UHGV virus genome: UHGV-1660455
Origin: a virus
Length of the DNA stretch: 22,842 bases
Reading direction: 5' to 3' (one strand)
The translations under genes and the position numbers were made by a program. The notes beneath the pieces were generated by a model. The model had not been told where the DNA came from, did no database searches, and saw only the letters and a list, made by a program, of their open reading frames with translations. The first letter of the stretch is position 1, and every line of letters begins with the position of its first letter. Positions 73 to 22,535 of this stretch are shown here, piece after piece.

Positions 73-96
73 TTAACCCCTCAAAAGAGGGGTTAA
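73..96 (-). terminator. Perfect palindromic hairpin (TTAACCCCTC-AAAA-GAGGGGTTAA) immediately 3' of the J stop; putative intrinsic terminator ending the late tail operon
   Basis: 10-bp perfect inverted repeat with a 4-nt loop read directly from the sequence, flanked by A/T-rich sequence; sits 5 nt beyond the J stop codon at 101-103. Confidence 0.45.
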
Positions 97-100
97 TATT

Positions 101-3100: not shown

Positions 3101-3991
3101 CAGCCCAAAGCGGTCGCTCACCACCAGATCGTAAAAAATCCAGGCTGGATTATCCGTCCACGCCCACTTAAACGCCCCTGTCCATGTGCCGCTGTAGGTG
3201 CGGGTCTCCGGGTCATACGTATCCGGAACGCGGATTACACGCCCTCGCGGTTCGCAGGATATTTGCGGGATAGAGCCGTTAAACTGGCTTGAGTCGAATT
3301 CGATGTACAGCAGCGCGGTATTTGGATAACGCAGTTTGGCGTCAATAACCTCTGTGTAGCTCTGCAGCGTCATCGTGTCGCCAATTTTCGCGCTGTTGGC
3401 ATCCGCCGTAAGCTTACGCAGGCGCACCGTCCATGTACTGCCTGCCTGTGGTAAATCGATACGATGGCTGCGTTCGTAGCCGGAAGTTGTCTTGCCGGTT
3501 ACGCTGGTATTAAGTACCGTCTGCCAGGTGCCGCCATCGGTCTGCAGATCAATAGCGTAGTTAATTGAATAGCCAACCAGATCGCCATCATCCTCCTGTT
3601 TAAAAAGCGATGGCCACTTGAGGCGCAGGCGAACGGCTGACAGTTGCGTGTTGGTAAAGGTATGTGTCCAGCCGGTGGTGCTTGACACTTCGGTGCCCAC
3701 GCTGATTTCATTTTCTGTGCCGGGGACACCCTGAATATATTTTTGTGCCTGAGTCCCCGGACGAAATTCCCACGCCACGCCACTGAAGTTTTGCGATCCG
3801 TCTGCATTCTCCAGTGGCGTGCCATCGAGATAGATATCCTTCGCCGTCAACTGCCCTGCAAATTCGCCCTCTCCCAGTGCAACAAGAATTTTGGCTTTCG
3901 CTACGGACTGGAGATCGTCTGGTTGTTCAGTCGGGGTGCGTGAACTGGAGCTGCCGCCCTTGCGGCCTCTAATCGGAGTAGATGTAGCCAT
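101..3991 (-). CDS. J: Tail tip / host specificity protein J (central tail fibre), 1296 aa; mosaic with a non-lambda C-terminal region
   Basis: Uninterrupted 1296-aa ORF. N-terminal and central parts are recognisably like lambda J (fibronectin-III-like middle region), and it sits last in the conserved order ...M-L-K-I-J. Confidence 0.93.
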   Translation of the reverse strand: MATSTPIRGRKGGSSSSRTPTEQPDDLQSVAKAKILVALGEGEFAGQLTAKDIYLDGTPLENADGSQNFSGVAWEFRPGTQAQKYIQGVPGTENEISVGTEVSSTTGWTHTFTNTQLSAVRLRLKWPSLFKQEDDGDLVGYSINYAIDLQTDGGTWQTVLNTSVTGKTTSGYERSHRIDLPQAGSTWTVRLRKLTADANSAKIGDTMTLQSYTEVIDAKLRYPNTALLYIEFDSSQFNGSIPQISCEPRGRVIRVPDTYDPETRTYSGTWTGAFKWAWTDNPAWIFYDLVVSDRFGLGNRLTAANIDKWTLYQVAQYCDQPVPDGKGGSGTEPRYTCNVYVQERNDAYTVLRDFAAIFRGMTYWGGDQIVALADMPRDVDYSYTRANVVNGRFTYSGSTTKTRYTTALVSWSDPGNAYADAMEPVFEQDLVARFGTNQLEMTAIGCTRQSEANRKGRWGILTNNKDRIVSFDVGLDGKIPQPGYIIAVADELLSGKVMGGRISAVNGRVITLDRDSAAAPGSRLMVNLPSGASQSRTIQSVNGRAVTVTTAYSETPAVESVWIVESEELYAQQYRVISVTDNNDGTYSIAGALHDPDKYARIDTGAIIDQRPISIIPPGNQSPPANIVINSFSVVQQNVNVQTMRVSWDQAKNAIAYEAQWRRNDGNWVNVPRSSTTSFDVPGIYAGRYLVRVRAINAAEISSGWGYSEEKTLTGKDGNPPKPVGFIASENVVFGIELNWGFPANTDDTLKTEIQYSLTGTEDDAMLLADVPYPQRKYQQMGLKAGQIFWYRAQLVDRSGNESGYTGWVRGQASIDVSDITDVILEDIKGSETFKDLIENAVDSNEKIAGMADDIKQANDELELQAQEIAKNAQDIGQVQTSVNELSSTVGDVSSSLSDLEQTVATADTALGQRIDSISVSMDGMTGGVKNSAIAIIQNGLAQVATRKSLSASVAGNSAQLDRIDEVIVNEKEATARSLLSLQTDVNGNKASINSLNQTFSDYQQATATQINGITATVNGHTSAITTNAQAIANVNGDLSAMYNIKVGVSSNGQYYAAGMGIGVENTPSGMQSQVIFLADRFAVTTAAGNSVALPFVIQNGQTFIRASFIQDGTIENAKIGNYIQSNNYAAGSAGWKLNKAGDAEFNNVTVRGVVYASGGRFTGEIQATSGKFKGTVEAQSFIGDIANMHTGTDVSRSSDGLLEKVITYTDSSSSGHARHVCVIANVKGNGAGLININGNESGSSVQDVERLIMHSAVVTGPNVTVRIKVSAQNNRGASIYSPTVIVSHGSGSFTG

Positions 3992-4002
3992 ATTGCGCCC
4001 AT

Positions 4003-4026
4003 AAAAAAGGCCACCCTGAGGTGGCC
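4003..4026 (-). terminator. GC-rich hairpin (GGCCACC-CTGA-GGTGGCC) followed by a U6 run on the minus-strand transcript, between I and J; terminator-like or attenuator element
   Basis: 7-bp perfect stem at 4009-4015/4020-4026, preceded on the plus strand by AAAAAA (4003-4008), which is UUUUUU after the hairpin on the minus-strand RNA; lies in a 52-bp I-J spacer. Confidence 0.5.
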
Positions 4027-4043
4027 TGAAAGGAGGTTTTTAT

Positions 4044-4634
4044 TTATTGCTGGTCTTCGACATAAATCCCGGCAGAAATAATCGCACCGCCGATTTGCCG
4101 ACGACCATAAAGAAGCGGTACCGGATAGCCCTGCGCGGCGGTGTTGGTGACTCCACCGAACGCGTATGAGGCGCGGTTATCTGAACTCTGTTTGCTGGCC
4201 AGCCCCGCTGGTTGAGGGGAAAGCATCTGAACAACCCCGCCAATCATCATTGCGGCACCGAATTTGTATAAGAATGGTGATGCCGCAGCCCAGGGTGTGA
4301 AATTAAGCACCGCCCCAACGGCAACCAGAACTGCACCAAGTATTGTCTGGAGTAATCCGGCCTTTTTGCTCCCGATAATCACCGGGACAATGCGAATGAC
4401 ATCGCCGGTGACCGGGTAACCCAGGTCATCAACACCAATATTCTTTTTCCCTTTGAATACTGAATAAGTGAGACCACGGCGTTGGCTGGAAATCATAAAC
4501 TGCTCAAAGCCCGGTATAGTCTTTGCCAGCGCAACACTCGCTTCGTTCACGCGGGAAATCAGGCGATGGTGAACTTTACCGAATGTTTTCCCGAGCACGC
4601 CGCCAAGCTCAATGCGGGTCATTACTTCCTGCAT
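4044..4634 (-). CDS. I: Tail assembly protein I
   Basis: 196-aa ORF between K and J in lambda order; hydrophobic central segment. An alternative start at 4622 overlaps the K stop (TAATG). Confidence 0.85.
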   Translation of the reverse strand: MQEVMTRIELGGVLGKTFGKVHHRLISRVNEASVALAKTIPGFEQFMISSQRRGLTYSVFKGKKNIGVDDLGYPVTGDVIRIVPVIIGSKKAGLLQTILGAVLVAVGAVLNFTPWAAASPFLYKFGAAMMIGGVVQMLSPQPAGLASKQSSDNRASYAFGGVTNTAAQGYPVPLLYGRRQIGGAIISAGIYVEDQQ

Positions 4635-5392
4635 GTTTCACCTGCCATTACATCTTTATAGCGAACGATCTTCATTGTGCGCTCCTGCCAGTATCCGCCA
4701 TAAGGAACACGTTGACTCAGATGCCCGTAAAGATGGTGCAGCAGCATGTTACCCTCCAGTAAAATCCCGGCATGATTCCACTTATCGGCCTGCACCTGCA
4801 TGATGACGAGGTCCCCTTCCTGAGGCGGACCATCAAACTCCCTGAATCCGCACTCGTACCAGCACTCCTGATAGAAATTGTCCGGGTAGTCGTTTTCCCA
4901 CCAGGGATAATCCACCCGGTAATCGTGGAGCTCGATACAGTGGGTCTGCCGGAAATAGCTCATTACCAGACCCCAGCAATCGAAGTGGCCAAGCACGAAC
5001 GGACGCTCCAGCAATGGCAGCTCCCCGCGTGGCTGAATGGTACGTAAATCCCCCTCTGGCCAGCTCACAATATGCCAGGGCAGCAGCGTTGCATCACACT
5101 GCGCCTTATCCAGCTCGCTGGCCTGCGTCGTCGCATCAGGATGGCTGTGAACAATGGCCACCACCGTCCCCCAGTCTTCTGCCGCTGCGTAATCTTCGGG
5201 GGACAGGTGAAAATGTTCAGTCGGCTCTGCTGCGAGATTACGACAGGGAAAATAGCGCTCAACCCGGCTTTTCTGTGCCACCACGCCGCAGCACTCTCGC
5301 GGATATTCCGCTGCAGCGTGTGCCATGATGGCATCAATGGTTTTCTGGCGCATATCAGCTCCTGATAAGGGATGTACCGGGGAAACCGCCAA
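4622..5392 (-). CDS. K: Tail assembly protein K (JAB/MPN plus NlpC/P60-like fold); true start probably the internal Met at 5353
   Basis: ORF with the conserved ...AEYPRECCGVV... and HSHP motifs typical of lambda K; sits between L and I. The ATG at 5353 lies 1 nt after the L stop. Confidence 0.88.
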   Translation of the reverse strand: MAVSPVHPLSGADMRQKTIDAIMAHAAAEYPRECCGVVAQKSRVERYFPCRNLAAEPTEHFHLSPEDYAAAEDWGTVVAIVHSHPDATTQASELDKAQCDATLLPWHIVSWPEGDLRTIQPRGELPLLERPFVLGHFDCWGLVMSYFRQTHCIELHDYRVDYPWWENDYPDNFYQECWYECGFREFDGPPQEGDLVIMQVQADKWNHAGILLEGNMLLHHLYGHLSQRVPYGGYWQERTMKIVRYKDVMAGETCRK

Positions 5393-6110
5393 ACGGCAGC
5401 TCGTTGCTGTCTCCGTGCCGGAGCTTGCAGGCCGTCAGCGTGCCGTTGCAGACATCCAGCGATGGATCGTCAACCGGATTATTGTTTTTGTCGAAATAGC
5501 GCGTTCCGGCATAGTCGCAGCCGTCGCCGGTCCGGTACTTGTTCCGGATGCACCAGCTGCATAACGAATGCAGCTGCCGCGTGGGTATCATCTGGCCCTG
5601 TAAATCCATCGGACTGGAAAGCGTAAATTCAACAGATTCATCCGTCTCGGTGCTTCTGGCATCGATATAAAAGACCTTCAGCTTTTCCTGTGACGGGTCT
5701 GCAGTGGGATTGCCCTGCGGAAAATTTCTGGCGTCCAGATACTGTGCCAGCGTGTCGTGGATACTCACTTTCGCCTGCAGCAGATCGTCATACGCCAGAC
5801 AGAGCGCTGAGATCGAGCTGTCCAGGTTCGCCACACTCAGTTTTGGCTGTGGACTGGTACCGTCCGTAGTCGCTTCAATACCCTCAACCTGACACGGCCA
5901 GGCTTTATACTCCTCCCCCTGCCACCAGATGGACTTCGCCGGAAGTTTATTCTCATCCCCGCCTGCAGCCTCAATCTCTTCCGGGGTATGCGCGATATTA
6001 TGTGCGTGGAAGCGGAGTACATCTGACATACCGAACGCTGTGCCATCGACAGAAAAAAGCCGGACTTCATTGCCCGGCTCGAGTTTTTGATAATCAGCAT
6101 TAAGACTCAT
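5355..6110 (-). CDS. L: Minor tail protein L
   Basis: 251-aa ORF following M in lambda order; Cys-rich C-terminus (possible Fe-S site) as in lambda L. Confidence 0.88.
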   Translation of the reverse strand: MSLNADYQKLEPGNEVRLFSVDGTAFGMSDVLRFHAHNIAHTPEEIEAAGGDENKLPAKSIWWQGEEYKAWPCQVEGIEATTDGTSPQPKLSVANLDSSISALCLAYDDLLQAKVSIHDTLAQYLDARNFPQGNPTADPSQEKLKVFYIDARSTETDESVEFTLSSPMDLQGQMIPTRQLHSLCSWCIRNKYRTGDGCDYAGTRYFDKNNNPVDDPSLDVCNGTLTACKLRHGDSNELPFGGFPGTSLIRS

Positions 6111-6454
6111 GGTGCAAATGCCTGTTCAAACGTTGCGGTTACGGTTATCACTTTTACGTTTTTAACCACCTTTTTGAGCGTGTCAGCCTCGACACGCCAC
6201 AGCGCGGTATCGCCGAAAGGCGGTGTGAAAATAAACGACTTCACTTTATGCCGCCGAAGGAAAGCGTGAATTTCATTCGCTGTAGTCGGATCCCCTGAAA
6301 AGGAATATTCATAGGTACGAATCTCATCATTCAGGCCGGAGCCGCTCACCTGTGCGTACCCGTCGCCGAACTGGACCTTCCTGACTGTGTCTTTGCTTCC
6401 CTCGGTGGGCTGGCTGGAAACCTTAATGCCCCAGGGGAATGTTTCTATCGTCAT
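6107..6454 (-). CDS. M: Minor tail protein M
   Basis: 115-aa ORF immediately after H, overlapping the L start by 4 nt; size and position match lambda M. Confidence 0.88.
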   Translation of the reverse strand: MTIETFPWGIKVSSQPTEGSKDTVRKVQFGDGYAQVSGSGLNDEIRTYEYSFSGDPTTANEIHAFLRRHKVKSFIFTPPFGDTALWRVEADTLKKVVKNVKVITVTATFEQAFAP

Positions 6455-6459
6455 AACTG

Positions 6460-8976
6460 TTACCTGCGATTGGTCGCATTCCAGATAAGCCCACCGGGCT
6501 GGATTGCCCTGGCGATACCATCGTTGACAGATTTGTTAATCACCTGCTGATACGCCTTACCCAGCCTGTCTCCGTCGTTTTGCTGCTGTGCGTTACCGGA
6601 AGCATTCTCGACCGTCACCGGGGCATATACACTGACACCGAAAGGTGCTGCAGCCGGGCCTGTACCACCGCCCCCGACATACCCACCCGTGGCATACCCT
6701 TTCATCATCCGGTAAAGATTGCCGACGCCGATCCGGCTGGTAGCCTCTTTGGTGAAAACAAATTCACCACGGTGAACGACACCTGCAGGTTCATATTTCC
6801 CGCCTGAACCGGTATAACCGCCACCTGCAAATCCCAGCGCGGTTGTCGCTGAATCCACCAGGCCTACCATCGCCTGTTTCAGCAGGATCTGTGTCAGCAT
6901 GGAGAGCGTGGAGCGGGTGAAGTCAGCCCAGTCAGCCTTTCCGCGCGTCAGCATGTCAGCCATATTTTGCCCGATGCCATCAAACGCACTGGTGGCAGCC
7001 GACTTCATCTGGCCATAAGCATCTGAAGCAGAATCAACATAATCTGCCCATGCGGATTTGGCTCCGGACTGCCAGTCGTCCCGCAGCTTATCCTGCTCGG
7101 CGTAATACGCCTGCAGCGCCTGCAGCTCATTCTGATAACCAGCATCGTTCTCCGAACCACCACCATTTTTCCAGCCCTGAAGAAGCTGGGCCTCTTCATT
7201 GCGACGTTGTGCTGCACGACTGCTCATACCAGCACTTTCCGCAAGGGCTCGGGTTTTCTCGCCGATCTGCGTGACGTATTTTTGGGACGTATCCTGCAGG
7301 CGATTAAGCCGCTCCTGCGCCACTATCTGATCGCCGAGCTTCGCATTCAGCTCCGCACGGGAAAGCACCTCACTTTTACTGGCCAGCAGGGATTTTTCCT
7401 CAGCAGAAAGCGTTCGGGTCTTCGCGGCCTCTTCCAGAACCGTAAAGCGGGACTGCTGACGCCACAGCTCCTGACGCTGCTGGCTGATGGTGTCATTGAT
7501 GCTCTTATGCTCCTGCAGGGTGCGCAGCTGTGTCTGTAGCTCCAGCGTATGGGCACTGGCCGTATCGGTGGCACGGGCACCTGCGGGGGTTCTGATCGCC
7601 GGGGTCTTCTTCGGCTTTTTAAGGGTGTCTTCGTACTCTTTTTTCGCGGCAGCCAGGTTGATGTTGTAGTCAGCCTGGAGGATCCGCCCCTCTTTCAGCG
7701 CCTTGTTGAGCTCGCTCTGCCTGGCCGTGTATTTCTCCAGTGCCGTCTGCGTTTTGGCATAGTTTGCCTGTGCCTGCGCAGCATACTTCTGGCGATCCGA
7801 TTCCGCAGCCGCTTCGCGCGATGCATTCTCTTCGTTCGCCCTGGCAATTCCCGCCTGCTGCTGCGCCATATCCAGCGCAAGCCTGGCCGTTTCGCGGTCA
7901 TTCCAGAATCGGGCGCGAGCCTCATCATTGACATATCGGTCACCTTTACGCAGGTTCCAGATTTCATCAGCTTTTTTGAACGCGGCTTCGGCTTTTGCCA
8001 CCATCTCCTGCGCGGTGTCAGGTCGGCCAATATCGAGGGCTGCATCCCACATCGACTTGAAGGCGCGCTTCAGGGAGTCCGCTGAAGACTCTATCGTCCC
8101 CATATTGTCGCGGATGGCTTTGGTCTGATCGTTGAATCCGGCTGTAGCCGCCTCGTTAGCCGCCTGCAGTGCGCCAGCCTCATCACCGGCACGCTGCAGC
8201 TGCGCCACATGGGCAATCTGTTCTGCGGTAACGTTATGGAACTGCTGGGCCATCGCGATCAGGCCCGATGTCGGGTCAGTTGCGAGCTTGCCGTAGGCTG
8301 CAGCGACTTTCTCCACCGGCACGCCGGAGGCATCAGTAAACCGCGCCACCGCCTGGCTCATTTCATCAAAGCGCGAGCCAGTACGCACACCTGCATTGAT
8401 AAGCTCGGTCAGGGCTTCACTGGTCTGGTTGAACGTTAGCCCCGCTGCCTGTCCGTTCCGCGCCAGTGCCAGCATGCGGTCAGCTGTCAGTCCGGCTGTG
8501 TTCCCCGACAGTACCAGCGTTTTGTTGAAATCAGACAGAGTGGAAGAGCCCTGGTACCAGGCATAGAACAACGCGCCCGTTGCAACGGACAATGCACCAA
8601 TGCCGACCATCAACGGGGAAATCGTCCCCAGCAACGCCCGGAATGTCGGAATGATCCCGCCAAAGGAGTCCTTAACCTGACCGCCCTGCTGAAGCAGAAT
8701 CAGCCAGGGGTTCTGCCCACCCGCCAGCTGCGTGGCCACGTCAGTAAACTGCGCCGGAAGCATACGCATTGCTGCGTTATACTGGCCTATTGAAATACCC
8801 GCCTTGCGCGCGGCGTTCTCCTGGCGGCTAAAGGACTGCTGGATCCGTAGCGCTTCGTCGTTCGCCGCGCTGCCAGTCTGCTTTAATTCTTTTTTGACGT
8901 AGTTAAGCTGCTCGTTAAATTTCGTCGAGTTAACGTCAAGGTTAACGACCAGATCACCCACTGCCGTCTGGGCCAT
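6460..8976 (-). CDS. H: Tail tape measure protein H
   Basis: 838-aa ORF with Ala/Gln-rich coiled-coil core and Gly-rich C-terminus; N-terminus and the ...AMRMLPAQFTDVATQLAGGQ... segment recognisably lambda H-like. Confidence 0.93.
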   Translation of the reverse strand: MAQTAVGDLVVNLDVNSTKFNEQLNYVKKELKQTGSAANDEALRIQQSFSRQENAARKAGISIGQYNAAMRMLPAQFTDVATQLAGGQNPWLILLQQGGQVKDSFGGIIPTFRALLGTISPLMVGIGALSVATGALFYAWYQGSSTLSDFNKTLVLSGNTAGLTADRMLALARNGQAAGLTFNQTSEALTELINAGVRTGSRFDEMSQAVARFTDASGVPVEKVAAAYGKLATDPTSGLIAMAQQFHNVTAEQIAHVAQLQRAGDEAGALQAANEAATAGFNDQTKAIRDNMGTIESSADSLKRAFKSMWDAALDIGRPDTAQEMVAKAEAAFKKADEIWNLRKGDRYVNDEARARFWNDRETARLALDMAQQQAGIARANEENASREAAAESDRQKYAAQAQANYAKTQTALEKYTARQSELNKALKEGRILQADYNINLAAAKKEYEDTLKKPKKTPAIRTPAGARATDTASAHTLELQTQLRTLQEHKSINDTISQQRQELWRQQSRFTVLEEAAKTRTLSAEEKSLLASKSEVLSRAELNAKLGDQIVAQERLNRLQDTSQKYVTQIGEKTRALAESAGMSSRAAQRRNEEAQLLQGWKNGGGSENDAGYQNELQALQAYYAEQDKLRDDWQSGAKSAWADYVDSASDAYGQMKSAATSAFDGIGQNMADMLTRGKADWADFTRSTLSMLTQILLKQAMVGLVDSATTALGFAGGGYTGSGGKYEPAGVVHRGEFVFTKEATSRIGVGNLYRMMKGYATGGYVGGGGTGPAAAPFGVSVYAPVTVENASGNAQQQNDGDRLGKAYQQVINKSVNDGIARAIQPGGLIWNATNRR

Positions 8977-9307
8977 AGCGCACGCCTCCTGAAATACCTG
9001 CAGCCTTCGCCATCAGCGTATCGTCATCCGGATCATCGATGTCGATGGCTTCCGGTGCAGAGGAAAGAATGCTGAAACTGTCCGGGGTTAACTCCGGATC
9101 GGCAAAAAACAGGGTTGAGATGGTGTAGAGCAAGCCGGAGAAATGTGCGTCCAGCTGCGCATCATGAAAGTAATTGTCCTGGTAGAAGATTTTCCAGTCG
9201 CCGTATTCCGTTGAGGACATGCCAGCAAGCATGGCACGCCAGTCCGGGCGACCGAACTCACGCGCCAGTTTCATGGCAAACTTCAGCTCACTGGCGAGGG
9301 CTTTTCC
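8954..9307 (-). CDS. T: T segment of the tail assembly chaperone G-T fusion, reached by a programmed -1 frameshift from G (putative slip site GGAAAAG at 9301-9307)
   Basis: The ORF in the -1 frame relative to G stays open from the end of G through 8954. The heptamer G_GAA_AAG lies 7 codons before the G stop, at the position where lambda has G_GGA_AAG. Confidence 0.75.
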   Translation of the reverse strand, partial: GKALASELKFAMKLAREFGRPDWRAMLAGMSSTEYGDWKIFYQDNYFHDAQLDAHFSGLLYTISTLFFADPELTPDSFSILSSAPEAIDIDDPDDDTLMAKAAGISGGVRYGPDGSG

Positions 9308-9705
9308 GCAGTAACAGGTTCAGCGGGTTCATTACGTTCTTCACCGGGCTCAGCCTGGTCATCAGTGACCGGCGCAATCATCCCGGACAGGAGTTTCACC
9401 TTATATTCGGCTTCGGCAACAAGTTCGGTCGGCCATGTCTGCATGACCTCATCCTGAATCTGCTCCACTTCCGCCGCCGCGTTTTCTCCCTGCGATCCTT
9501 TAAGCGCGTGGCCATGCCAGAGTGACATTGCCACCAGATATGCTCCACTCTTCACGGTAAGGGTAATGGCAGCCTGAAAATCACCAGCTTCAACCGCCTC
9601 AAGTTGTTTCAGGTATTCGAGGTATTCAATACGCTGCAGCGCCGACAGCTGGAACAATGTGACGCTGCTGCCGTTACTTTCAAGCAGCTCGCTCTTTAGA
9701 AACAT
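9283..9705 (-). CDS. G: Tail assembly chaperone G
   Basis: 140-aa ORF, same length as lambda G, starting MFLK...; follows V. Confidence 0.9.
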   Translation of the reverse strand: MFLKSELLESNGSSVTLFQLSALQRIEYLEYLKQLEAVEAGDFQAAITLTVKSGAYLVAMSLWHGHALKGSQGENAAAEVEQIQDEVMQTWPTELVAEAEYKVKLLSGMIAPVTDDQAEPGEERNEPAEPVTAEKPSPVS

Positions 9706-9741
9706 AATTACTCCGGGGGAACGGGGCTTTCGCCCCGGTTA

Positions 9742-10479
9742 TCAGGAAACAGTGACTTTGCAGATCGCCACAAAGTTACCGTCATTGCTCATTACGATGA
9801 TCTCGACGGTGCCTGCCGCCACGCCGGTAACAGTCAGGGTATTGCCGCTGACGGTGACCGTTGCTTTTGACGGATCAGAACTGGCTACGCGGAAAGACTT
9901 ATCTGAAGCACTTGCTGGCAGGACAGAAACAACCAGTTGCGTCGTGGCCGCGACAGCCACAGCCGCCGTGGATTTATCCAGGCTGATCCCCGTAACGGCA
10001 ATCGGCGCGGTACCACTGTCTTCGGCCAGCGATGGTTTGCCATTGTTGGTGATTTTTGCCGTGCGGGTCATGACCTCTTTAGACGAGATGGTCTTGCCGA
10101 GACTGCTCACCCAGCCCTTAAAGACATCGACAACACCATTCGGATATTTGATTTTATACCCCTTCACGGTGCCTTCATCGAACCAGTTCACCAGGTCCTG
10201 CTGACCGGAATCCTCCGGCATCCATGCGAGCGTCAGGTTTGTTTCACCGGCTGATTTCTGCCCCTGCATCGTTGATGTCCAGTCGGCATTCTCATCATCG
10301 ATGTAGGTGTCATCTTCCGATTCAGCTGTCAGTTCTCCGGGCTGCAGGTCTTTAATCTTTGCCAGGCGCAGCCAGTCAACGTCTGAAAGCGGATTGGCGT
10401 ATGGATCACCAGTTCCGGTGTAAACCCAGAGGGTGGTACCAGCACCTTTTGTTGGTGCCAGCGGGTTTGGTGTGGCCAT
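9742..10479 (-). CDS. V: Major tail tube protein V with C-terminal Ig-like domain
   Basis: 245-aa ORF; the ...[25 protein letters not shown]... N-terminus is recognisably lambda V. Confidence 0.93.
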
Positions 10480-10486
10480 AGGGTCC

Positions 10487-10885
10487 TCACATGTCGTAAG
10501 TAATGGAATATTTCAGGTCGGCAGAACTCCACAGCGCCATATCGTCATCGCGCTGGTAGTCATAGCCCTGCTGAACCATTGTGGTGATAAGAGATTCAAG
10601 CCCCGGAACCTCTGCGAGAACCGGATACACTCTCGTCTCCATCCAGTCATCCAGATCAGAATCAGGTACCTGAGCCTCAAGAAAGACTTCGATATGCAGA
10701 ATGGCCTGCCAGCTATCGGCGTCCAGTTCTTCCCCTGTGTATTCCGCATCTGTCAGGTAGACGGCAACAGCGGGAAAATCACCCTCTTCGAGCACTGCAG
10801 GTCTGCCGTCAAAATAAATGACATCAGTACCAATCGCGCTTTCCAGCGCGTCAATAATCACCTTGCGAATATCGCTGTGTTTCAT
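10487..10885 (-). CDS. U: Tail tube terminator protein U
   Basis: 132-aa ORF with the ...[27 protein letters not shown]... motif pattern of lambda U. Confidence 0.92.
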
Positions 10886-11436
10886 CGTGTCAGAATTAAC
10901 CTGAGTTGGTTGGTAAGGGATGCCCGGAGCTCTTTGGGCATATCTGACTCCATGAGCTTCGGCAGTTCTTCTTTAAATGCCGTAGTTAATGGAGCTGCCA
11001 GCGGGATGCTGACCACTTCAATGGGGTAACGAGGTTTTGAAGTCCGCCTCATGACATGCCAGCGACCATTTTTAAGTTGCTGGATAAAGCCGCCCGGAAA
11101 ACGAAATGGCCCTATGCGAAGAACGCTGTTGGCCCCTTTCTTGTCCCGTTTTCTGCGGGAAAGTCGCACGCTTGCGGTACCGAGTTTAATGGCCGGTAAA
11201 TTTCCCCGGTTTACCCGGATAAGTGCACGAGGTCTATTGACCGTCGCACGCTTCACCCTGGCGCGTTGCTTTACCAGTTTTCGCGGTACGCGCGTATCTT
11301 TTGATACGACTGCCACGCTGCGGCTGACGGCCCGGTTTGCCACGCGGTTAACGGCCTGCGCCGATGCCCGCGGAACAGCCGTTTTGCTGATGCTGTTAAG
11401 GTTTTCTATGGCCTGTTCAAGGCCTTTTATGGACAT
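10882..11436 (-). CDS. Z: Head-tail connector / tail completion protein Z
   Basis: 184-aa basic ORF between FII and U in lambda order. Confidence 0.85.
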   Translation of the reverse strand: MSIKGLEQAIENLNSISKTAVPRASAQAVNRVANRAVSRSVAVVSKDTRVPRKLVKQRARVKRATVNRPRALIRVNRGNLPAIKLGTASVRLSRRKRDKKGANSVLRIGPFRFPGGFIQQLKNGRWHVMRRTSKPRYPIEVVSIPLAAPLTTAFKEELPKLMESDMPKELRASLTNQLRLILTR

Positions 11437-11445
11437 ATGCGCTCC

Positions 11446-11799
11446 TTAACGGCGACGCGAAGATGCAGGTGGAGAGCCGTTACCCAGACAGATATGACAG
11501 GAGCCACAGTCATCCGGACCAATACGTTCAACCCAGAATTGCCGACCGTTAATCGTCAGCGTGTCCATACGCTGCAGCTGCCTGACAGTGGCGGTTTCCA
11601 CAAACAGGGTCGGGCTGGTTCCTTCAACACGAATCCCGGCACCGGCATATCCGATATTTTCTGGATCATCGAATACACCGACCAGGGTGGCACCTGACAA
11701 AGCGCCTGACATCACCTTTGCCTCTGTGCCCATCACACCACGGATAGCGCTATCAGCTCGCGACATGGCCTCGTCAAAGAGATTATCGAAATCAGCCAT
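11446..11799 (-). CDS. FII: Head-tail joining protein FII
   Basis: 117-aa ORF, same length and position as lambda FII. Confidence 0.88.
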   Translation of the reverse strand: MADFDNLFDEAMSRADSAIRGVMGTEAKVMSGALSGATLVGVFDDPENIGYAGAGIRVEGTSPTLFVETATVRQLQRMDTLTINGRQFWVERIGPDDCGSCHICLGNGSPPASSRRR

Positions 11800-11809
11800 G
11801 TGGCCCCCT

Positions 11810-12271
11810 TCAGACTTCGAAAGCCAGCCCCTTTGCGATCAAGTCGTCGGCATCCTGTTCAGATACGCGGATAATCACACCAGGCTCTACGATAGATACC
11901 GGCTCGTTACGCGTGGCATGCAGAGCGTCAATATGCAGGGTGGCCAGCGTTTCTACTGATACCAGGTCACCCGTTGTGGCCGATTCCGTTTTTACTTTTG
12001 CCACGTTAGCAACATTGTTGTCGGTGCTGTCGGTGCTGTCGGTGCTGTCGGTGCTGTCGGAAGCATTCTGCACGCCGTTTTCACCGTCAACTGACCCGGC
12101 ATTGCCATCCAGTTCCTCTTCAAGCTCAGCAATACGCATCGTCAGTTCCTGAATGGTGCCGCTGGTACTGACCTCGCGGTTAAGCTGGGTCCCAAGTTCA
12201 TTCAGGCGGGCGACCAGCTTTTCTTTTTCTGTCATGGGAAATACTCCAGAAAGGTGGCCCGACAGGGCCAC
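11810..12271 (-). CDS. FI: DNA packaging protein FI, with an expanded (DST)n linker
   Basis: 153-aa ORF. The N-terminal ...EL.ARL.ELG.QLNR.VS..GT..EL..R.AEL.EELD... and C-terminal ...LH.DALHATR.EPV... segments are lambda FI-like; the central acidic linker holds the tandem repeat. Confidence 0.88.
   Translation of the reverse strand: MALSGHLSGVFPMTEKEKLVARLNELGTQLNREVSTSGTIQELTMRIAELEEELDGNAGSVDGENGVQNASDSTDSTDSTDSTDNNVANVAKVKTESATTGDLVSVETLATLHIDALHATRNEPVSIVEPGVIIRVSEQDADDLIAKGLAFEV
12021..12060. repeat. Perfect 9-bp tandem repeat (TCGGTGCTG, about 4.4 copies) inside FI, encoding (Asp-Ser-Thr)n on the minus strand
   Basis: Read directly: tcggtgctg x4 followed by tcgg. Confidence 0.95.
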
Positions 12272-12280: not shown

Positions 12281-13306
12281 TTATGCCAGTTTGACGGAGA
12301 CGAATGCGTCAGGGTCTGGCAGCAGCATCAGCGGAGCTGACTGAATCATGGTGAATTCGCGCGCCGGATCCCCCGACTGCACCCAGTTTTTCGGGTAGCG
12401 TGTCGAGGCATTGATACCTTCGCGCTGGGCATCAGCATCAAGAATGCAGCCATAGGTACGCAGGCCACGAGCCTGGGTATTCCCCAGCACCATTGTCAGG
12501 TCCGGCAGATAATTCTTTTTGACGTCGTTTTCGACGTACTGGCCGGAGTACACCACGATGGCCACATCGCCAAACATCCCCTTGTATGAAACAGCCATAC
12601 CCAGGTCTTTCACGGCAGTTTCCAGCTCAGAGTTAGAACCACGACGCGTATCCAGCTTCTTCTCAACAGCCTTGAAGGAACGGAACAGCGCCCAGCCTTT
12701 CGGATCGAACACAATGATGTTGACCACACCGCTGGCGTTGAGCGCGTAGGCTTCAATGTCATCGGTCGGGTCATACGTTTCTTTGTCGCGGGTTGACCAT
12801 GCAGCCGCACCGGCCTGGACAATGTTGTTACCAGCGCTGCGGCCCATATCGACTTCAACAGGCTCGAACGCTTCCCCGGTCATGGTGTATTTACCGCTGA
12901 GCACCGCCGAAACAGCCTGTTTCTCTTCGACCTGAGCAATCGCCAGCTCTTCATCCTTCATGTTCTGAAGGATAATGCGGCGACGGCGATAGACCGGGTC
13001 AGCGAGATTCTGCGGATCCTCATCCGGCAGGCGGCGGAGAGTCATCAGTGGGTTAACTTCGTGTTTCGGCTTCACATAACCCGGCGTGAATTCAGACGTG
13101 CTGCCGCCACGGGAGCGGATCACTTTGCCGGAGACAATCGGCGAGACGTAAAGCGCCATATTGACCAGGCCAGGAATTTGCGACAGGTAAACCTTCTCTG
13201 TACTGAAGGGATAGGTTTCGCGGAAAAAGATACGCAGGAAAAGCGGATCGAATTTGAATTTCTTCTCATTGACCGCCAGCAGTTGGGCAGTGGTGTAAAC
13301 GGACAT
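12281..13306 (-). CDS. E: Major capsid protein E
   Basis: 341-aa ORF, same length as lambda E and highly similar along its whole length (MS.YTTAQLLA.NE.KFKFDPLFLR...). Confidence 0.96.
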   Translation of the reverse strand: MSVYTTAQLLAVNEKKFKFDPLFLRIFFRETYPFSTEKVYLSQIPGLVNMALYVSPIVSGKVIRSRGGSTSEFTPGYVKPKHEVNPLMTLRRLPDEDPQNLADPVYRRRRIILQNMKDEELAIAQVEEKQAVSAVLSGKYTMTGEAFEPVEVDMGRSAGNNIVQAGAAAWSTRDKETYDPTDDIEAYALNASGVVNIIVFDPKGWALFRSFKAVEKKLDTRRGSNSELETAVKDLGMAVSYKGMFGDVAIVVYSGQYVENDVKKNYLPDLTMVLGNTQARGLRTYGCILDADAQREGINASTRYPKNWVQSGDPAREFTMIQSAPLMLLPDPDAFVSVKLA

Positions 13307-13373: not shown

Positions 13374-13706
13374 TTAAACGATGCTGATTGCAGTACCGGC
13401 GAACGCGTTACGTTTAATGTTGTCGTCGGTGACGGCAGATGGCCAGAGGACATCTTCAATACGGAAAGAGCCAGATTTGTAATATGCCAGTTCCGCGCTG
13501 TTCTGGTCTGCGGTTACAGCCAGGATGCCCATTGCCGCGCCAGCATGAGCACCATCCCAGACGGTCAGCTTGCCAGAAGTGGCATCCAGCATGAGCGGCG
13601 TCATGGCTGGAGTGGAAGCCGTCAGTTCGCCAGGACCATACGCAGTGTGCGCCGGGTCGCTGTTACCGAGCGGCTGGTTATGTGTGAAAACTTCAGTAAT
13701 TGCCAT
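13374..13706 (-). CDS. D: Head decoration protein D
   Basis: 110-aa ORF, same length as lambda D, with the conserved ...GNSDPAHTA... and ...[11 protein letters not shown]-terminus. Confidence 0.95.
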
Positions 13707-13715: not shown

Positions 13716-14981
13716 TTAAACGGGGGTGTTTAACAAATCGTCAGCGGCATCAGAAGATGCGCTACCTGCTGGGAGTGCACCGGGTGCTGTTTCCATCAAA
13801 CGATCCAGCGCCGTATCGGTACGCGCCTGGGCACTTTGCGGTGCAGCAGCCAGAATGCGCTGTGCGCTCTCTACCGTCATACCCGGCGTTTCGGCCAGTG
13901 CTCGCGCCTGTGACTCACGCCCTTTAGCCTCATCGCAGTTCAGGATGCCCATGATGCGGCTATTCTCTGCAGCTACTGCTGCAGTAACCTGCGCACTGAC
14001 ATCTACAGGGGCCGCTACGGAAGCAATGGTCGTGTCAACGGTAGTGACCTGTTCAGCTGAGGCAGTTGTCTGAGTTGCTGCCTGGTCAACTGGCTTAGTG
14101 GTCACAGCTGAAGCAGAAGGTGATGGCATAGTTCCTCCAAGGGTTGTTTTTTTGCGTCTGTCGAGTGCTTCGCGCATCACGCCGAGCGCATCGGTATTGT
14201 TAACAAGTTCATCCGCCAGTCCGTTATCCAAAGACTCCTGGCCGGAGAATACTGCCGCTTCGGTGTCCAGCACGTCCTGAACAGACATGCCGGTATAAGC
14301 GGAAACCTTTTCGGCAAACATCTGACGAGTGGCATCGATACGCGTCTGGAAATCAGCACGCACATCTTTCGGAAGCTTTTCGTAAGGGTTGCCGTCGACC
14401 TTGCGATCGCCGCTGTAAATCAGCGTGACCTCAACGCCGTTAGTTTTGAGCGCAGCGCCATAGTTGCTGTGCGCCATCATGACCCCAATGGAGCCGGTTC
14501 TGGCCGTTTGTGTGACCAGCCGTCGCGATGCCGAACTGGCTATAAGCTGCCCTGCACTGCAGTTCATGTCATTGGCCAGCGCCCAGATGGGTTTGATATC
14601 GCGCATACGGGCTATAATGTCGGCGCAGTCAAACGCCCCGGACACCATTCCACCCGGCGTATCCATATCCAGAAGAATGCCGTCAACGCCGGGGTCACTG
14701 ATTGCCTGCTGCAGGCGAGCAATGATCCCGTTGTAACCCGTCATGCCGGAATAAGGCTGAAGCGCACGGGTTTTACTGACCAGCGTGCCGGAAACCGGCA
14801 AGACCGCGATACCATTTGCCACCTGATAGCTGCGTGATGGACGGGGATCCATGTCATCATCCTCACCAAACAGCGCCAGCGGTTCGGCTATTTGTCCGGC
14901 ATCAAGCGTGATGCCAGAGACGGTATCTGTCAGCCGGGTGATGCCCAACTGGCCAGCCAGCGCGCAAATAGGCGGGTTCAA
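13716..14981 (-). CDS. C: Head maturation protease / scaffold protein C (S49 peptidase family; the 3' portion corresponds to the Nu3 scaffold frame); the 5' end appears frameshifted
   Basis: 421-aa ORF that opens on a TTG directly after an in-frame TGA. It is recognisably lambda C from ...CALAGQLG... onwards, but the first 26 C-like codons lie in another frame (next feature). Confidence 0.85.
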   Translation of the reverse strand: MNPPICALAGQLGITRLTDTVSGITLDAGQIAEPLALFGEDDDMDPRPSRSYQVANGIAVLPVSGTLVSKTRALQPYSGMTGYNGIIARLQQAISDPGVDGILLDMDTPGGMVSGAFDCADIIARMRDIKPIWALANDMNCSAGQLIASSASRRLVTQTARTGSIGVMMAHSNYGAALKTNGVEVTLIYSGDRKVDGNPYEKLPKDVRADFQTRIDATRQMFAEKVSAYTGMSVQDVLDTEAAVFSGQESLDNGLADELVNNTDALGVMREALDRRKKTTLGGTMPSPSASAVTTKPVDQAATQTTASAEQVTTVDTTIASVAAPVDVSAQVTAAVAAENSRIMGILNCDEAKGRESQARALAETPGMTVESAQRILAAAPQSAQARTDTALDRLMETAPGALPAGSASSDAADDLLNTPV

Positions 14982-15046
14982 GCATCAGCGGCTCATTAAA
15001 GGCCATACTGGCAATATGCGGAAGATTACGCAGCTCGTGCGCCATC
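14903..15046 (-). other. C: Out-of-frame 5' fragment of gene C: ATG plus 26 codons matching the lambda C N-terminus, then a frame change and premature stop
   Basis: Manual translation from the ATG at 15046 gives [26 protein letters not shown], then unrelated residues and a TGA at 14903-14905. The C homology resumes in the +1 frame at ...ICALAGQLG. Confidence 0.6.
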
Positions 15047-16618
15047 TTGCTCCTCCTCGTTTGATTTTTTCACTCCGGCCTCAAAAGCTGCAGCGGCCCA
15101 TGCCGGTGGTTTCAGACCCGCAGCACGACGCTCCATGGTTTCCCGGACCTGCTGGGCAAAAATCTCCTGATAATCATCACCGCGTTTGGCGCACTCTTTT
15201 TCATACGTGCTGAGACCTGCCTCAATGAGCATGACGGCCTCCTGTACCTCTTTCAGCCCGTCAATTGCCATTCGACCAGAGCCAATCCAGTTGGCATTCC
15301 CCCAGGCTGTTCTCGCCTCCTGGAAACTGAACCGGGCTTTCGAAGGAAGCGTGACCACGCGGCGGACAATCGCCTCTTCAAGCCAGCAAAGAAACATCTG
15401 ACAGGCCTGTCGGGATGCCACAAACTTGCGACGCCCCATAAAGTACGCCCAGGACTCGTTAGCACTTGCGCGTGCGGTCGAGTAGCTCATCTGCGAATAG
15501 TTTCGCGAAAGCTGCTCATACGACACACCAAGCCCAGCGGCAATATAACGCAGCAGGGACTGTTCAAAAGTCGAGTAGCCGTTATCGGTATCCTGCGCCG
15601 ACTGAAGGTTGAGAGAATCACCCGGCAACAGGTGTGGAACCCTTGCCCCACCCAGGCGAACAGGCGCAGCTGAGTAATAGGACGCCATTTCACCGAGCCA
15701 GCCCGTAAGTTTGCTCTGCTGCTCTTTATTATCCGCGCCGAGAATAAAGTCCATCGCCGATTGGGTATCCAGTTCACTCTCGATGGTAGCGGCATACATA
15801 GCCTTCACTATCGCGCTCTGGAGCTGGGTATTTTGCAGGGTATCGAGCATTTTCATCTGCTCCATCACGCTGTAAAACGCATTGGCCCCACGGGTCTGTC
15901 CATCCTCCATCGGTTCGAATACATGGATAAATGAAGGTCGACCGCCGGGTAGTTCGCGAGGAATGTAGGTCCAGTTCTGCGCCATCCAGCCGGGATAACC
16001 ATCGTCGCTGACGTAATATCCCAGCGCAGCACCGCTATCATTTATTTTCACACCGGCGCGACAGTTCCGGGTATCACCGATATTATTCGGATTGCTGACG
16101 CGCTTCGGACTGACCATTTTGAACTGAGTACGGAAAAGACGCGTTGAATCGCTGTCCCAGGTCGCCTGCGTGCATAATTCACCGTTAAACGCGTGCATGG
16201 CCACACCTTCTCGGATCATCATCGTAAACGTTCGCTTACGCTCGGCATCAATCCCGCAAAAGTCGTCCTCGGCATACTCATTCCATGCAGCTTCCACATC
16301 CCGCGAGAATGCCCGTGAATCCTCCTCATTTATTCCCAGATAACGCCAGCTTGGTCGATAACTGAGTCTGAAAAATGACCCGACGATGTGGTCCTGGTGG
16401 AGCTGCACGGCGTTTGCCGCGTAGCCATTATTTCGCACCAGATCGTCAGCGCGGGCATTTCCGCGAGAATAGTTGGGTAGGAGTGCGGCATCTGCACTTT
16501 CACTCGGCGGATTCCAGCCTCGCAGCTGCCCACCAAACCCGCCTCCACCGCCATGATATCCTGCGTATTCCCGAAGGGATGTTTTCCCGTCAGGTCCCAC
16601 CAAAGATGGTATTTTCAT
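15026..16618 (-). CDS. B: Portal protein B
   Basis: 530-aa ORF highly similar to lambda B over its length. Confidence 0.96.
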
Positions 16619-16821
16619 ACGTAAAACCCTGCTGGCCCCCGGCGTCGTGATGTGGTGCCAACCTGAGATTCAAGGTCAGCAATATATTTTTTGAGATCGC
16701 TGACTGAAGTGGCTGTAAATTCCACTCTTCGACCGTCTTTCTGTACCGTCGCCACGCGCTTTCCCATCATCAGGTCATGTAACGCAGCGCGCGCGGCATC
16801 CAGTTCAGTCTGTGTTGCCAT
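16615..16821 (-). CDS. W: Head-tail joining / DNA stabilisation protein W
   Basis: 68-aa ORF, same length as lambda W, with the conserved ...[31 protein letters not shown]... core. Confidence 0.93.
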
Positions 16822-18743
16822 TATTCATCTCCAGATAATGCCCGCGCGTAATCCGCCAGGGTCTTGTTATTGTTACGGCTGCCTTCTTCCTCCAGCAGGC
16901 TGGCCAGAAGTGAATCAAGATTTAGCTGCCAGCGGGATATGCTTATACGCAGCGCCGCCAGTGCATAAACAAAGCAATCGAGCGCCTCATTTCGTCGTTT
17001 TTTGCTGTCCCAGACGATCTTTTTCTTTCCGTCTACCCATTTTTCCACCTGCTCTTCAGCTGTTAGTTGTTGGGCCTCTGTTAGATCGTAGATTTCTGGG
17101 TTATTCGGGAAATGAACCGCTCCCGCCAGCGGCTCGTCTCTTTGCGCCACCAGCGTGAAACGGTTATAAATCTGCTCTTTTGCGGTGTCTGTTCCTACCT
17201 CTGTGAGGTAAACACCATTCTTGTTACGCTTGCGTGGCATGTTCGCCACTGGCTTTCCATAAACCGACGCCCCCTTTATAGGGATCACACGAAACAGACC
17301 GTGTTTTTTTGAGCGGTTGTAGACGATGGTGGGATCAATGCCGCCAATATCCCAGCAAGTGCGGGATATAACCATTTCGAGACCGTTCTGGCGCTTATAC
17401 GTCCTGTTGATCGCTTCATCAACTCGAGCGAGAGTCGACTCATCATCATGACGACCCATAATGATAATTTTGTCGATAAGCCAGCTTTCCTCTCCCGGCC
17501 CCCATCCCCAAACACGCATTTCGTAACGGTCAAGCTGGGAGTCAATACCCGCTGTCAGATATGCCACTCGCTCCGGCACAGACGCTTCAAAGTGCTCTTT
17601 TCGTTCCGCTAAAACTTCAGCATCGGGTCGCTCACCTATTTTCGGTTCCCACGTTTCGCCCAGGGTCGTGTTAACGAAAGTTTTTCGCTTACCCGTATCA
17701 CCTTTTGTTTTTATCCAGTCCTTGACGATCTGCACCCAGGTTGTGAACGGGCTATATGCGGTCCAGATGTGGAATGTAACGCTATCAGGAGGTTCAATTT
17801 CGGTACCGGATGAAGAAAACCAGTTAAGGCCGTCTCGTGTCCAGATACCTGTTTCATCACAAATATACCTGGCCTCCAGAAATTCCAGCTCCTGTTGTTT
17901 AATCACACAGGCATTGTGTTCACAGAGGTAGTAAACGCTGGCAGGTTCTCCCGGAGACCATTTGAAGCCAAATGGTGTCTCTTTATCACCGAATTTCAGA
18001 TACTGCTCTTCCCCACAGTGTGGGCATGGAACATGGAACCGAAGAAAATGTTCAGACTCCTTAGCAGCTCTTTCTATCTGGCACGTACCTTTGACTTTCG
18101 GTGTAGATCCGCGAATGGATTTCGGCCATACAGAACCCTCAATACGCTTATCACCCAGAAAGGTGGGAGAACCTTCTTTCTCGATGTCATCATCGAAAGC
18201 GGCGAGCTCGTCGTAGCCAGCCACATCAACTGATTTTTCACGGTAGTTTTTTGCAGCCTTACCGCCCAGGCACCAGAAACCACGACCATTCGAGAAACGC
18301 TTCATGCTCAGCGTATTGTCCCGGTGTTTTTTACCGTACCAGGGAGCAAGCGCCAGCAACGTCGGAATATCACGAATGGTCGGTTCTACATGAGACTTCA
18401 TGAAGTTTTCAGCATCACCGTCGGTTGGTAACCATATTAGGGAGTTACGCTGTTTATGTTGGATGAAATATGCGTAAACGCCGAGCAACATTTTTGAGTA
18501 GCCGACACGAGCCGATTTAACGACATTCACCTCGCGAATATAGTCATTACCCATCGCATTCATAATTGCACGCTGAAATGGCAGTGTTTCCCAGCGCCCT
18601 TCCTGGTAGGCAGACTCTTTCGGGAGATAATAATTCTCATCTGCCCATTCAACTGCTGTTTGCGGTTGCGGCCGGTACAGCGAACGTAACCCCGCCCGCG
18701 CAGAGTGCTGCAGCCCCTTAACCTGACTGTTCGATATATTCAC
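16821..18743 (-). CDS. A: Terminase large subunit A (gpA; ATPase/endonuclease)
   Basis: 640-aa ORF near-colinear with lambda gpA (MNISNSQV... N-terminus; Walker and nuclease regions conserved). Confidence 0.97.
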
Positions 18744-19263
18744 TCAGCAACCCCGGTATCATTTCATCCAGCGCAGCTGCCTTGTTCATGGCCTTAATGA
18801 TGTCCTTCTTGAGGAAATCAATATGTCGGTTCTCCAGCTCCGGGAAGCGCCGCTGAACCGACAGAGGTATTCCATCGAGAATGCTGGCGATTTCTCCGGC
18901 TACCCGCGACAGCACGAACGTGCAGAATGCGGTCTCCACCACTTCAGCGGACTCTTTTGCATTTTTTAATTCCTGAGCGTCAGCCTGAGCTCGCGTAAGT
19001 CGGTGTCGCTCATATTCAATCGTGCCAGGTTGAAGATCGGACTCAGAAGCGATACGGAGATCTTCAACTTCCTTCCGCAACTTTTCATTTTCTATAGCTG
19101 CATCGCGCGCACTGTACCATTCGATTGCAGCAGCAGATTCAAAGAGAACCTCATTACCTTTGCCACCACCGCGGACAACCGGCATACCTTGCTCCTGCCA
19201 GTTCTGAATCGTTCGGACGCTTACCCCGAAAATTTCGGATAAGCGTTTTTTGTTAACCTCCAT
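18718..19263 (-). CDS. Nu1: Terminase small subunit Nu1
   Basis: 181-aa ORF, same length as lambda Nu1; N-terminal winged-helix region MEVNKK...IRTIQNWQEQGMPV.RGGGKGNEVL... essentially as in lambda. Confidence 0.96.
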   Translation of the reverse strand: MEVNKKRLSEIFGVSVRTIQNWQEQGMPVVRGGGKGNEVLFESAAAIEWYSARDAAIENEKLRKEVEDLRIASESDLQPGTIEYERHRLTRAQADAQELKNAKESAEVVETAFCTFVLSRVAGEIASILDGIPLSVQRRFPELENRHIDFLKKDIIKAMNKAAALDEMIPGLLSEYIEQSG

Positions 19264-19511: not shown

Positions 19512-20186
19512 TCATCGACGGCACTGCTGCCAGATAACACCACCGGGGAGACATTCCATCATGATGGCCGTGCGGACATAGGAAGCCAGTTCATCCATCG
19601 CTTTCTTGTCTGCTGCCATTTGCTTTGCAACATCCAGATCCGCACATTCAGCAGTATTTTTCAGCGCGTTATCAAGCACCGCTTCGAGATTGGTATCAAC
19701 GCCAGAGTTAACTTCAAATTTGTCGGCGCTGATGGTTACCTTGTTCTGTACTGGCTCATCACGCAGGATACCAAGGCTGATGTTGTAGACTTTGGTCACC
19801 GACTGAGGCTTTTCTAATTCGGCGGCGCGGATAGAACCACCAGCGATATTGGCTTCCTTGATGAATACCTCACCGTTCTTCACAACAAATGGTGAGGTAT
19901 CAATCTCAACGCCAAGCGTCATCGAAGCGCAATATTGCTGCTTACCAAAACGCGTATTGACCAGGTGTTCAACGGCAAATTTCTGCCCTTCTGATGTCAG
20001 AAAGGTAAAGTGATTTTCTTTCTGGTATTCGGTTGCTGTATGTCTGGTTTCAGCAAAGCCAAACTCGCGCAATTCAGCGGCACCAGATTTAGACGGCAGG
20101 TCACCTGACAGCAACGCGCCACGGAAAAAGAGCGAATACAGAACATCCGTCGCCGCACCGGATAACGTAATGATTTTCTGACCCAT
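19512..20186 (-). CDS. Conserved lambdoid-phage protein of unknown function, encoded just upstream of cos
   Basis: 224-aa ORF with an AAAGGAAA ribosome-binding site. It resembles proteins found at the right end of lambdoid genomes, but my recollection of the exact family is uncertain. Confidence 0.6.
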   Translation of the reverse strand: MGQKIITLSGAATDVLYSLFFRGALLSGDLPSKSGAAELREFGFAETRHTATEYQKENHFTFLTSEGQKFAVEHLVNTRFGKQQYCASMTLGVEIDTSPFVVKNGEVFIKEANIAGGSIRAAELEKPQSVTKVYNISLGILRDEPVQNKVTISADKFEVNSGVDTNLEAVLDNALKNTAECADLDVAKQMAADKKAMDELASYVRTAIMMECLPGGVIWQQCRR

Positions 20187-20446: not shown

Positions 20447-20911
20447 ATGATCACCAAAGTAAAAATCAAGTTTATTTCCCCTATTGATGGATCGGTATCA
20501 GATACCCCCACGGAGCATGCAATTCCCGTAGTTCCATTGACAGTATGGCCAAGTAGCTCAAAAGATATAAACGTTTATAAACCAAATGGATTGAAGGCTG
20601 GTGCCTACGCACTTATAGATACCGGAGCAGATCTTTGCTATGTGGATTCAGACTTTGCTGACGATTTAAAACTCCCAATCGCGGAAAAAACAACTGTGAG
20701 CGGAGCCACCTCAACAATAGAAACTACAGTTCGGCATGCGGTAATATCGTTCACTGAGGACGAAAGAGTTTTTTCAACAGAATTGACTTCAGTGCCATTG
20801 GTAAGTAACGGGAGAAAATTCCAAGTCGTTTTCGGAATGCAACTAATTAAAATGGGCGCCCTTACGATGGATTTTTCCAATCAAGTATTTGAGTTAACAT
20901 TTTTTAACTAA
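20447..20911 (+). CDS. Retropepsin-like (clan AA) aspartic protease, 154 aa; AT-rich moron gene on the strand opposite the late operon
   Basis: ORF with a good Shine-Dalgarno (AAGGAAAAAGG-ATG) and the canonical aspartic-protease signature hydrophobic-hydrophobic-D-T-G-A (..YALIDTGADLCYVD..). Markedly lower GC than the flanking phage genes. Confidence 0.75.
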   Translation: MITKVKIKFISPIDGSVSDTPTEHAIPVVPLTVWPSSSKDINVYKPNGLKAGAYALIDTGADLCYVDSDFADDLKLPIAEKTTVSGATSTIETTVRHAVISFTEDERVFSTELTSVPLVSNGRKFQVVFGMQLIKMGALTMDFSNQVFELTFFN

Positions 20912-22076: not shown

Positions 22077-22535
22077 TCATTTAAGACACTGCTCTTTGAT
22101 GTATTCCTGCAAATATCCAACCTGTTTCGTCACTGTGACGATTCGCTCTCTGAGGGTGAAATAATCCCGTTCAGCGGAGTCAGTAAGTCGGGGGCCGGTA
22201 ACATCGCCCAGGCCGCCGGTGCTGGTCGTTCCGTTCGCGGGACAGTTTGCGTTGAGCTGCAGCCGCTTACGGCCAGCAATGACATCGCTATGCAGACGCT
22301 CAATGGTTTCTTTCGCATCAGCCAGTTCTCCGGTGTATTTGGCATCCAGTGCAGCGACATCACGCTGGCGGGTCTGCATGTCTTTAATGGTGGCGGTCGC
22401 CAGGAGGAGTTTCTCAGTGGCCTTATCGCGCTGGTCTCTGTAAGTGATGGCGTTGTCGCGGTAGTGGTTCACGAAGAAATTAACGCCAGCACCAGCAACT
22501 GCAGCCAGTAACGCTTAACCAGTGCGCTAATCATG
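22077..22535 (-). CDS. Rz: Rz inner-membrane spanin subunit (i-spanin); the N-terminal transmembrane region appears interrupted by a frameshift
   Basis: The ..[28 protein letters not shown].. periplasmic domain is lambda Rz-like. The ATG at 22533-22535 overlaps the lysozyme stop but is in a different frame from the body of the gene. Confidence 0.85.
22130..22318 (-). CDS. Rz1: Rz1 outer-membrane lipoprotein spanin subunit (o-spanin), embedded in the +1 frame of Rz
   Basis: Lipobox LLAVSG|C followed by a Pro-rich segment ..[26 protein letters not shown].., closely resembling lambda Rz1; wholly nested inside Rz. Confidence 0.85.

Follow-up and report, generated by a model that had tools for sequence, protein, structure and literature searches.

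Does the phage represented by UHGV virus genome UHGV-1660455 carry a broken gene for its head-maturation protease, or was the break introduced when its sequence was put together? The window (the whole stretch of DNA that we analysed, 22,842 nt) holds on its minus strand the complete late, or structural, module of a lambdoid siphophage, in the order Nu1, A, W, B, C, D, E, FI, FII, Z, U, V, G/T, H, M, L, K, I, J. Gene C lies between the portal gene and the genes for the decoration and major capsid proteins, its start overlapping the end of the portal gene, and its reading frame is interrupted. The initial annotation had offered three explanations: a pseudogene, a protein made from a downstream start, or a homopolymer sequencing error. 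We conclude that the frameshift is most likely a join artefact of a fragmented metagenome contig, the real phage having an intact C.

The phage is most likely a phi80/mEp237/N15-like E. coli prophage, widespread and nearly clonal. Its structural genes are 98.5% identical to those of mEp237, 94.6% to those of HK225 and 91% to those of N15, and its other head and tail genes are all intact. The product of gene C is an ordinary head-maturation protease of the lambda gpC type. It consists of an N-terminal module followed by an S49 serine-protease core and, at the C-terminus, a scaffold domain, which is also produced separately from a nested start. The S49 fold matches SppA structures 3rst and 4kwb (residues 82-297, E=2e-17); SppA (PDB 3rst, 4kwb, 3bez) shares this fold but has neither the phage N-module nor the scaffold domain, and is a structural relative only. 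The nested scaffold gene in the 3′ third of C, with a ribosome-binding site of its own as in gpC-type genes, is annotated as gp6 in N15 and phi80. Coordinates are collected in Table 1.

Table 1. Features of the window discussed in the text, listed from its high-numbered end.
Feature	Position	Strand	Details
Rz-like lysis gene	22077-22534	-	13 bp (CGGCGCACTGGCT) missing at about 22478; frameshift after codon 19
Cargo-like gene	20447-20911	+	154 aa
Cargo-like gene	19512-20186	-	224 aa
Nu1	18718-19263	-	
Terminase A	16821-18743	-	
Portal gene (lambda B homologue)	15026-16618	-	intact, 530 aa
Gene C, 5′ fragment	14902-15045	-	native ATG and RBS, 26 native codons, 21 out-of-frame codons, TGA; 47-aa ORF
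Junction of the missing 14 bp	14967-14969	-	TGCGCGGGTTTTCT or equally GCGCGGGTTTTCTT; placement ambiguous by 1 nt
10-N scaffold gap of scaffold_1173	14956-14960	-	replaces CTGGC, 8-9 nt from the C junction
Rest of gene C, +1 frame	13716-14981	-	mechanical ORF from TTG, 421 aa; equals residues 32-447 of intact protein
378-aa C product	13716-14852	-	first in-frame ATG, Met70 of intact C
Peptidase_S49 (SppA-like) domain	14166-14606	-	intact; PF01343, E=1e-37, residues 83-229 of the 378-aa form
Nested in-frame scaffold gene (lambda Nu3 / N15 gp6 equivalent)	13716-14129	-	137 aa, ATG 14129, own RBS GGAGGA
D	13374-13706	-	
E	12281-13306	-	
FI, 9-bp tandem repeat	12019-12060	-	TGTCGGTGC, 4.7 copies, perfect
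G and T ORFs	8954-9705	-	140 aa and 106 aa
J	101-3991	-	

Gene C begins at an ATG at 15045-15043, one base away from the position 15046 given in the initial annotation, which was right about the ribosome-binding site (GAGGAGGAG) and about the placement after B: the start overlaps the last 20 nt of the portal gene, as in lambda B/C. It was also right that the frame breaks after codon 26. From the ATG, 26 native gpC residues are followed by 21 unrelated ones and a TGA at 14904-14902, and the C homology (..ICALAGQLG.. / ..ICALAGQLGITRL..) continues in the +1 frame, in an ORF that opens on TTG. The TTG does not directly follow an in-frame TGA, as had been stated, the actual order being TGA-TGC-TTG. 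The single continuous frame of about 440-447 codons, N-terminal module included, that is present in every sibling and homologue examined is thus missing from the window.

We aligned this region to its relatives at the nucleotide level and found a feature that is real and specific, with a cause other than the one first described. Over 190 nt, the alignment to phi80 contains one clean 14-nt gap between window positions 14969 and 14967, all other bases being identical, instead of a break at a short T run (TATTTG). Phi80 reads CCTA[TGCGCGGGTTTTCT]TTTGCGCG and the window reads CCTATTTGCGCG; the window junction is GCCTAT/TTGCGCGC, with the slash at the join. The 14 nt absent from the window encode ARVFF (residues 27-31) minus one base. 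In a comparison with mEp237 over 17.8 kb the 14-bp gap is the only frame-breaking indel, the only other indel being an in-frame change in the 9-bp tandem repeat of FI, of which mEp237 has two fewer units; there are no 1-bp indels elsewhere in this span.

The closest known system is phi80, with gene 5 encoding the capsid serine protease (AFV29145.1 / CBH95056.1) and nested gene 6 the scaffold. The 351 nt around its C start are identical to the window except for the 14-bp gap, and it shares the order portal-C-D-E, the 20-nt portal/C overlap and the start of the nested 137-aa scaffold protein. Its C protein differs from the repaired window protein at 4 of 447 residues, and its gene from that of the window in being one continuous 447-codon frame. 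mEp237, HK225 and N15 (gp5/gp6) likewise have an intact C of 1,344 nt, and all four phages contain the 14 nt. The likeness to lambda gpC/gpNu3 extends to the S49 core, the in-frame nested scaffold, the place after portal B and the 20-nt B/C overlap, and the N-terminal 40 residues are nearly identical; lambda differs in a DNA identity of about 85%, detected only over the 5′ part of the query, and gpC has no Met at the position of Met70. In all but the continuity of its frame in this contig, the gene conforms to the lambda gpC / phi80 gp5 / N15 gp5 family, with nothing new about it.

All 85 full-length matches from 5,426 complete E. coli genomes contain the 14 nt, each aligning 351 nt of the query to 365 nt of the record. 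So does the one full-length plasmid match, to Enterobacter cloacae, in which 348 nt of the query align to 362 nt. We retrieved near-identical copies of the phage by exact look-up of neighbouring proteins, and six assemblies at no more than 3 substitutions from the window carry the 14 bp. Contig MVIN01000046.1 (GCA_002109445.1), from an E. coli isolate, matches window positions 22842-12526 (10.3 kb) without a mismatch and differs from them only at two places where the window lacks bases: 14 bp in C and 13 bp in an Rz-like lysis gene. Four independent assemblies (ENA ERZ24771491, ERZ23880210 and ERZ27236828, and NCBI GCA_047780885.1) are 1-3 substitutions away from the window over 18.9 kb and contain the 14 bp and a 447-aa C. 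Taken together, the isolate prophage and the near-identical metagenome copies lie 0-3 substitutions from the window over 10-19 kb and differ from it in their intact 447-aa C; otherwise only the number of FI 9-bp repeats varies. A Logan contig, SRR19064875, covers window positions 47-12048 only, with 1 mismatch, and stops short of C; every near-identical copy that extends to C has the 14 bp and the 447-aa protein. Re-inserting the 14 bp in silico gave a 447-aa protein with an exact match on 616 public contigs.

The junction itself was not found in GTDB species genomes, IMG/VR or JGI metagenomes, nor in the 5,426 complete E. coli genomes, phage records or plasmids. Neither the exact 47-aa junction ORF nor the 421-aa product occurs in a collection of 15 billion proteins; analogous ORFs of 42 and 44 aa were called in two other broken assemblies. 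These are the only two public contigs with the 378-aa product, GCA_045572135.1 and ENA scaffold_1173, for which gene callers report this form. Neither supports the 14-bp deletion, as one is riddled with indels and has a different lesion in C, a 1-bp loss in the wild-type T-run neighbouring the window site, and the other is filled with Ns there. In GCA_045572135.1 (JBIGMR010000002.1), a related prophage, many 1-bp indels break the terminase, portal, C and capsid genes, a pattern that looks like uncorrected long-read errors.

Outside the junction, the N-filled contig, scaffold_1173 of the ENA gut-metagenome assembly ZELL14-1_SAMEA2467067, agrees with the window wherever it has a base other than N. 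It contains five N-runs in the region shared with the window. One of these, of 10 Ns, lies beside the C junction, and the scaffold's contig on the left side of this site has the 14 bp. A 137-N run covers the second private gap of the window, in the Rz-like gene, where the window junction is GCGTTAAT/TTCTTCG. The 13 bp missing there are present in the isolate sibling and in 24 of 24 complete E. coli genomes matching that region; an intact Rz-like gene was seen in the isolate contig, the only near-identical copy that reaches this far. The window end at 22842 is exactly the first base after a further 10-N run, and two N-runs fall where the window is correctly resolved. At its low end the window extends 11 nt beyond the end of scaffold_1173, and near-identical siblings diverge from it below position 47. 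With assembly breakpoints at either end, the window has the look of a complete contig; from the identical sequence and the shared contig boundary, it is probably the whole contig of a related assembly from the same or equivalent reads. By our rough estimate, both private gaps would fall at N-runs by chance with a probability of about 1e-4, taking roughly 280 nt of 21 kb for each.

We infer that the gap arose during assembly or post-processing and not in DNA. This lesion has two marks of an artefact: it is absent from near-identical copies of the same element, and it lies at contig breaks of another assembly, both private gaps and the window end coinciding with N-runs of scaffold_1173. An artefact is favoured because the 14 bp are present in all other copies, because the gaps overlap assembly breaks, and because the repaired protein is the common allele. 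An assembler or scaffolder may have joined sequence across a poorly resolved spot, dropping 14 bases; the gap could have been closed at zero length, mishandled by a gap closer, or lost when N characters were removed. The real phage would then encode the intact 447-aa C protein. One consideration tempers this account. A pure de Bruijn assembler can make only those junctions for which spanning k-mers exist. Unless the join was the work of a scaffolder, a gap closer or N removal, the deletion may therefore be genuinely present in some reads, whether from a minority variant or from a library artefact. A genuine mixture of wild-type and deleted copies could also, by itself, have produced the shared assembly breaks.

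The absence of a recognisable deletion mechanism points the same way. We found no direct repeats of fitting spacing flanking the 14-bp or the 13-bp gap, so replication slippage explains the loss of 13 or 14 bp at neither site, and this too favours an artefact. TGCGCG direct repeats near the C junction are 16 nt apart, not 14, which rules out slipped-strand deletion between them, and the junction shows just one T of microhomology. Intact C contains an 8-bp hairpin (GAACCCGC/GCGGGTTT) followed by a T-run at codons 22-33 (12208-12239 in the sibling, about 14955-14985 in the window). A simple scan flagged this element as terminator-like, although such counts are not above chance regionally. The 14-bp gap takes away its 3′ arm and most of the T-run. 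We rejected hairpin-mediated deletion, as the gap removes the 3′ arm only and the fold in intact C is no more stable than that of shuffled sequence (z=0.03).

What, then, of the possibility that the gap is genuine? Blunt short deletions happen in nature, small-indel decay is common in prophages, the 14-bp gap is unambiguous in the window sequence, and de Bruijn assembly would require junction-spanning reads. A very recent private deletion, leaving C a pseudogene in this prophage copy, would fit the intact state of the remaining head and tail genes, and C in the window does carry a frame-disrupting indel relative to its intact orthologues. Yet two independent blunt deletions of 13-14 bp would be needed in a copy with zero substitutions relative to the isolate, both coinciding with scaffold gaps of another assembly whose contig has the wild-type 14 bp, and neither junction is present in any other public sequence searched. 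The lesion is private among near-identical copies, with no other carriers, shared lineage or accumulated substitutions to give it independent support. We therefore regard the pseudogene named in the initial annotation as possible but unlikely. If the deletion were real, the native ATG would yield a 47-aa peptide in place of the full-length protease; the nested 137-aa scaffold protein, untouched by the gap, would be kept together with all other structural genes. Lambda C was scored essential (EOP <2e-7), in agreement with the literature, though CRISPRi may be polar (PMC10695390). Given this essentiality, proheads could be assembled but not matured, and without complementation the prophage would be defective; such a lesion in an essential head gene would be an ordinary, fresh knockout. 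We give virtually no weight to a programmed +1 frameshift at TATTTG or to a homopolymer error of one base in this run. Deleting one T from the window does restore an open frame, and the error-prone GCA_045572135.1 shows that a 1-bp loss can appear in the neighbouring wild-type T-run. However, the phi80 alignment shows 14 bp missing and no base added, the 17.8 kb compared with mEp237 hold no other 1-bp indel, and removal of one T yields a protein without ARVFF, a form found in no relative. Every relative has one continuous frame, so that a frameshift signal is not conserved, and on reading the sequence between the +1-frame TGA and the 0-frame stop we recognised no known +1 slippery motif. The sequencing-error explanation thus erred on mechanism, no T having been gained, but a data artefact is nonetheless the best-supported reading.

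A deletion that is real but tolerated is a hypothetical case that we consider very improbable. Re-initiation at the ATG at 14852 would here produce a 378-aa protease sufficient for head maturation. A credible ribosome-binding site (GAGG, 14864-14861) precedes this ATG by 8 nt, and 50 nt separate the ATG from the stop of the upstream ORF (14902); the 378-aa form loses nothing of the S49 domain (residues 82-298 of 447) or of the scaffold domain. An AlphaFold2 model of intact C (mean pLDDT 78.5) predicts an N-module at residues 6-64 (pLDDT 72-84), a disordered linker at 65-72, an S49 core at 79-308, and a disordered stretch at 310-351 before a helical scaffold domain. Met70 falls in the low-confidence linker, so that its use as a start would amount to a clean domain deletion. 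Against this, the ATG and its ribosome-binding site are also found in intact relatives, and so are not an adaptation, and no part of the protein is better conserved between lambda and phi80-like C than the N-module, where 38 of the first 40 residues are the same. The motif FNxPLLxEPxYA in this module is still present at 30-50% identity, the module itself is kept in relatives down to about 35%, and essentially all full-length homologues have it. The initial annotation had suggested that the protein might naturally start downstream, and the homologues speak against this: the 120 closest are near full length, at 436-449 aa (117 of them 446-449) with query coverage of 98-100%, save for one 743-aa protein with 89% coverage, and distant homologues align from about residue 5 onward. 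None among the 120 closest or the distant representatives starts naturally downstream, and the few proteins beginning near residue 70 are fragments of 217-235 aa. The literature covered makes general statements only on the role of the gpC N-terminus (Medina et al., 2010, lay outside this coverage). The truncated form depends, moreover, on the deletion being real. That it is real and that heads are matured by the Met70-re-initiated 378-aa protease, making the conserved N-module of gpC dispensable, strikes us as extremely improbable.

A join artefact thus remains our preferred reading, and its significance is mainly one of quality control, as no new biology is implied whether or not the lesion is real. 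A literal annotation of the contig would report a defective prophage, its protease truncated to 378 aa and its spanin gene broken; judged by comparison, the phage is probably a common, intact phi80/N15-like element. The one by-product of mild use is a domain map for proteases of the gpC type, comprising conserved N-module, linker, S49 core and scaffold domain.

Three other parts of the window deserve mention. The tail-assembly chaperone ORFs G and T have the usual lambda arrangement, which implies, by analogy, a canonical programmed -1 frameshift. Two cargo-like genes lie between the lysis module and Nu1. The product of the minus-strand gene is named "Fur-regulated" or "tail tip fibre" by its sources and is rare (a cluster of 3); the gene on the opposite strand encodes a retropepsin-like aspartyl protease that is common in Enterobacter. 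The perfect 9-bp tandem repeat in FI differs in copy number, in frame, between otherwise identical phage copies, giving FI proteins of 138, 141, 144 or 147 aa, and is a genuine VNTR in this DNA-packaging protein.
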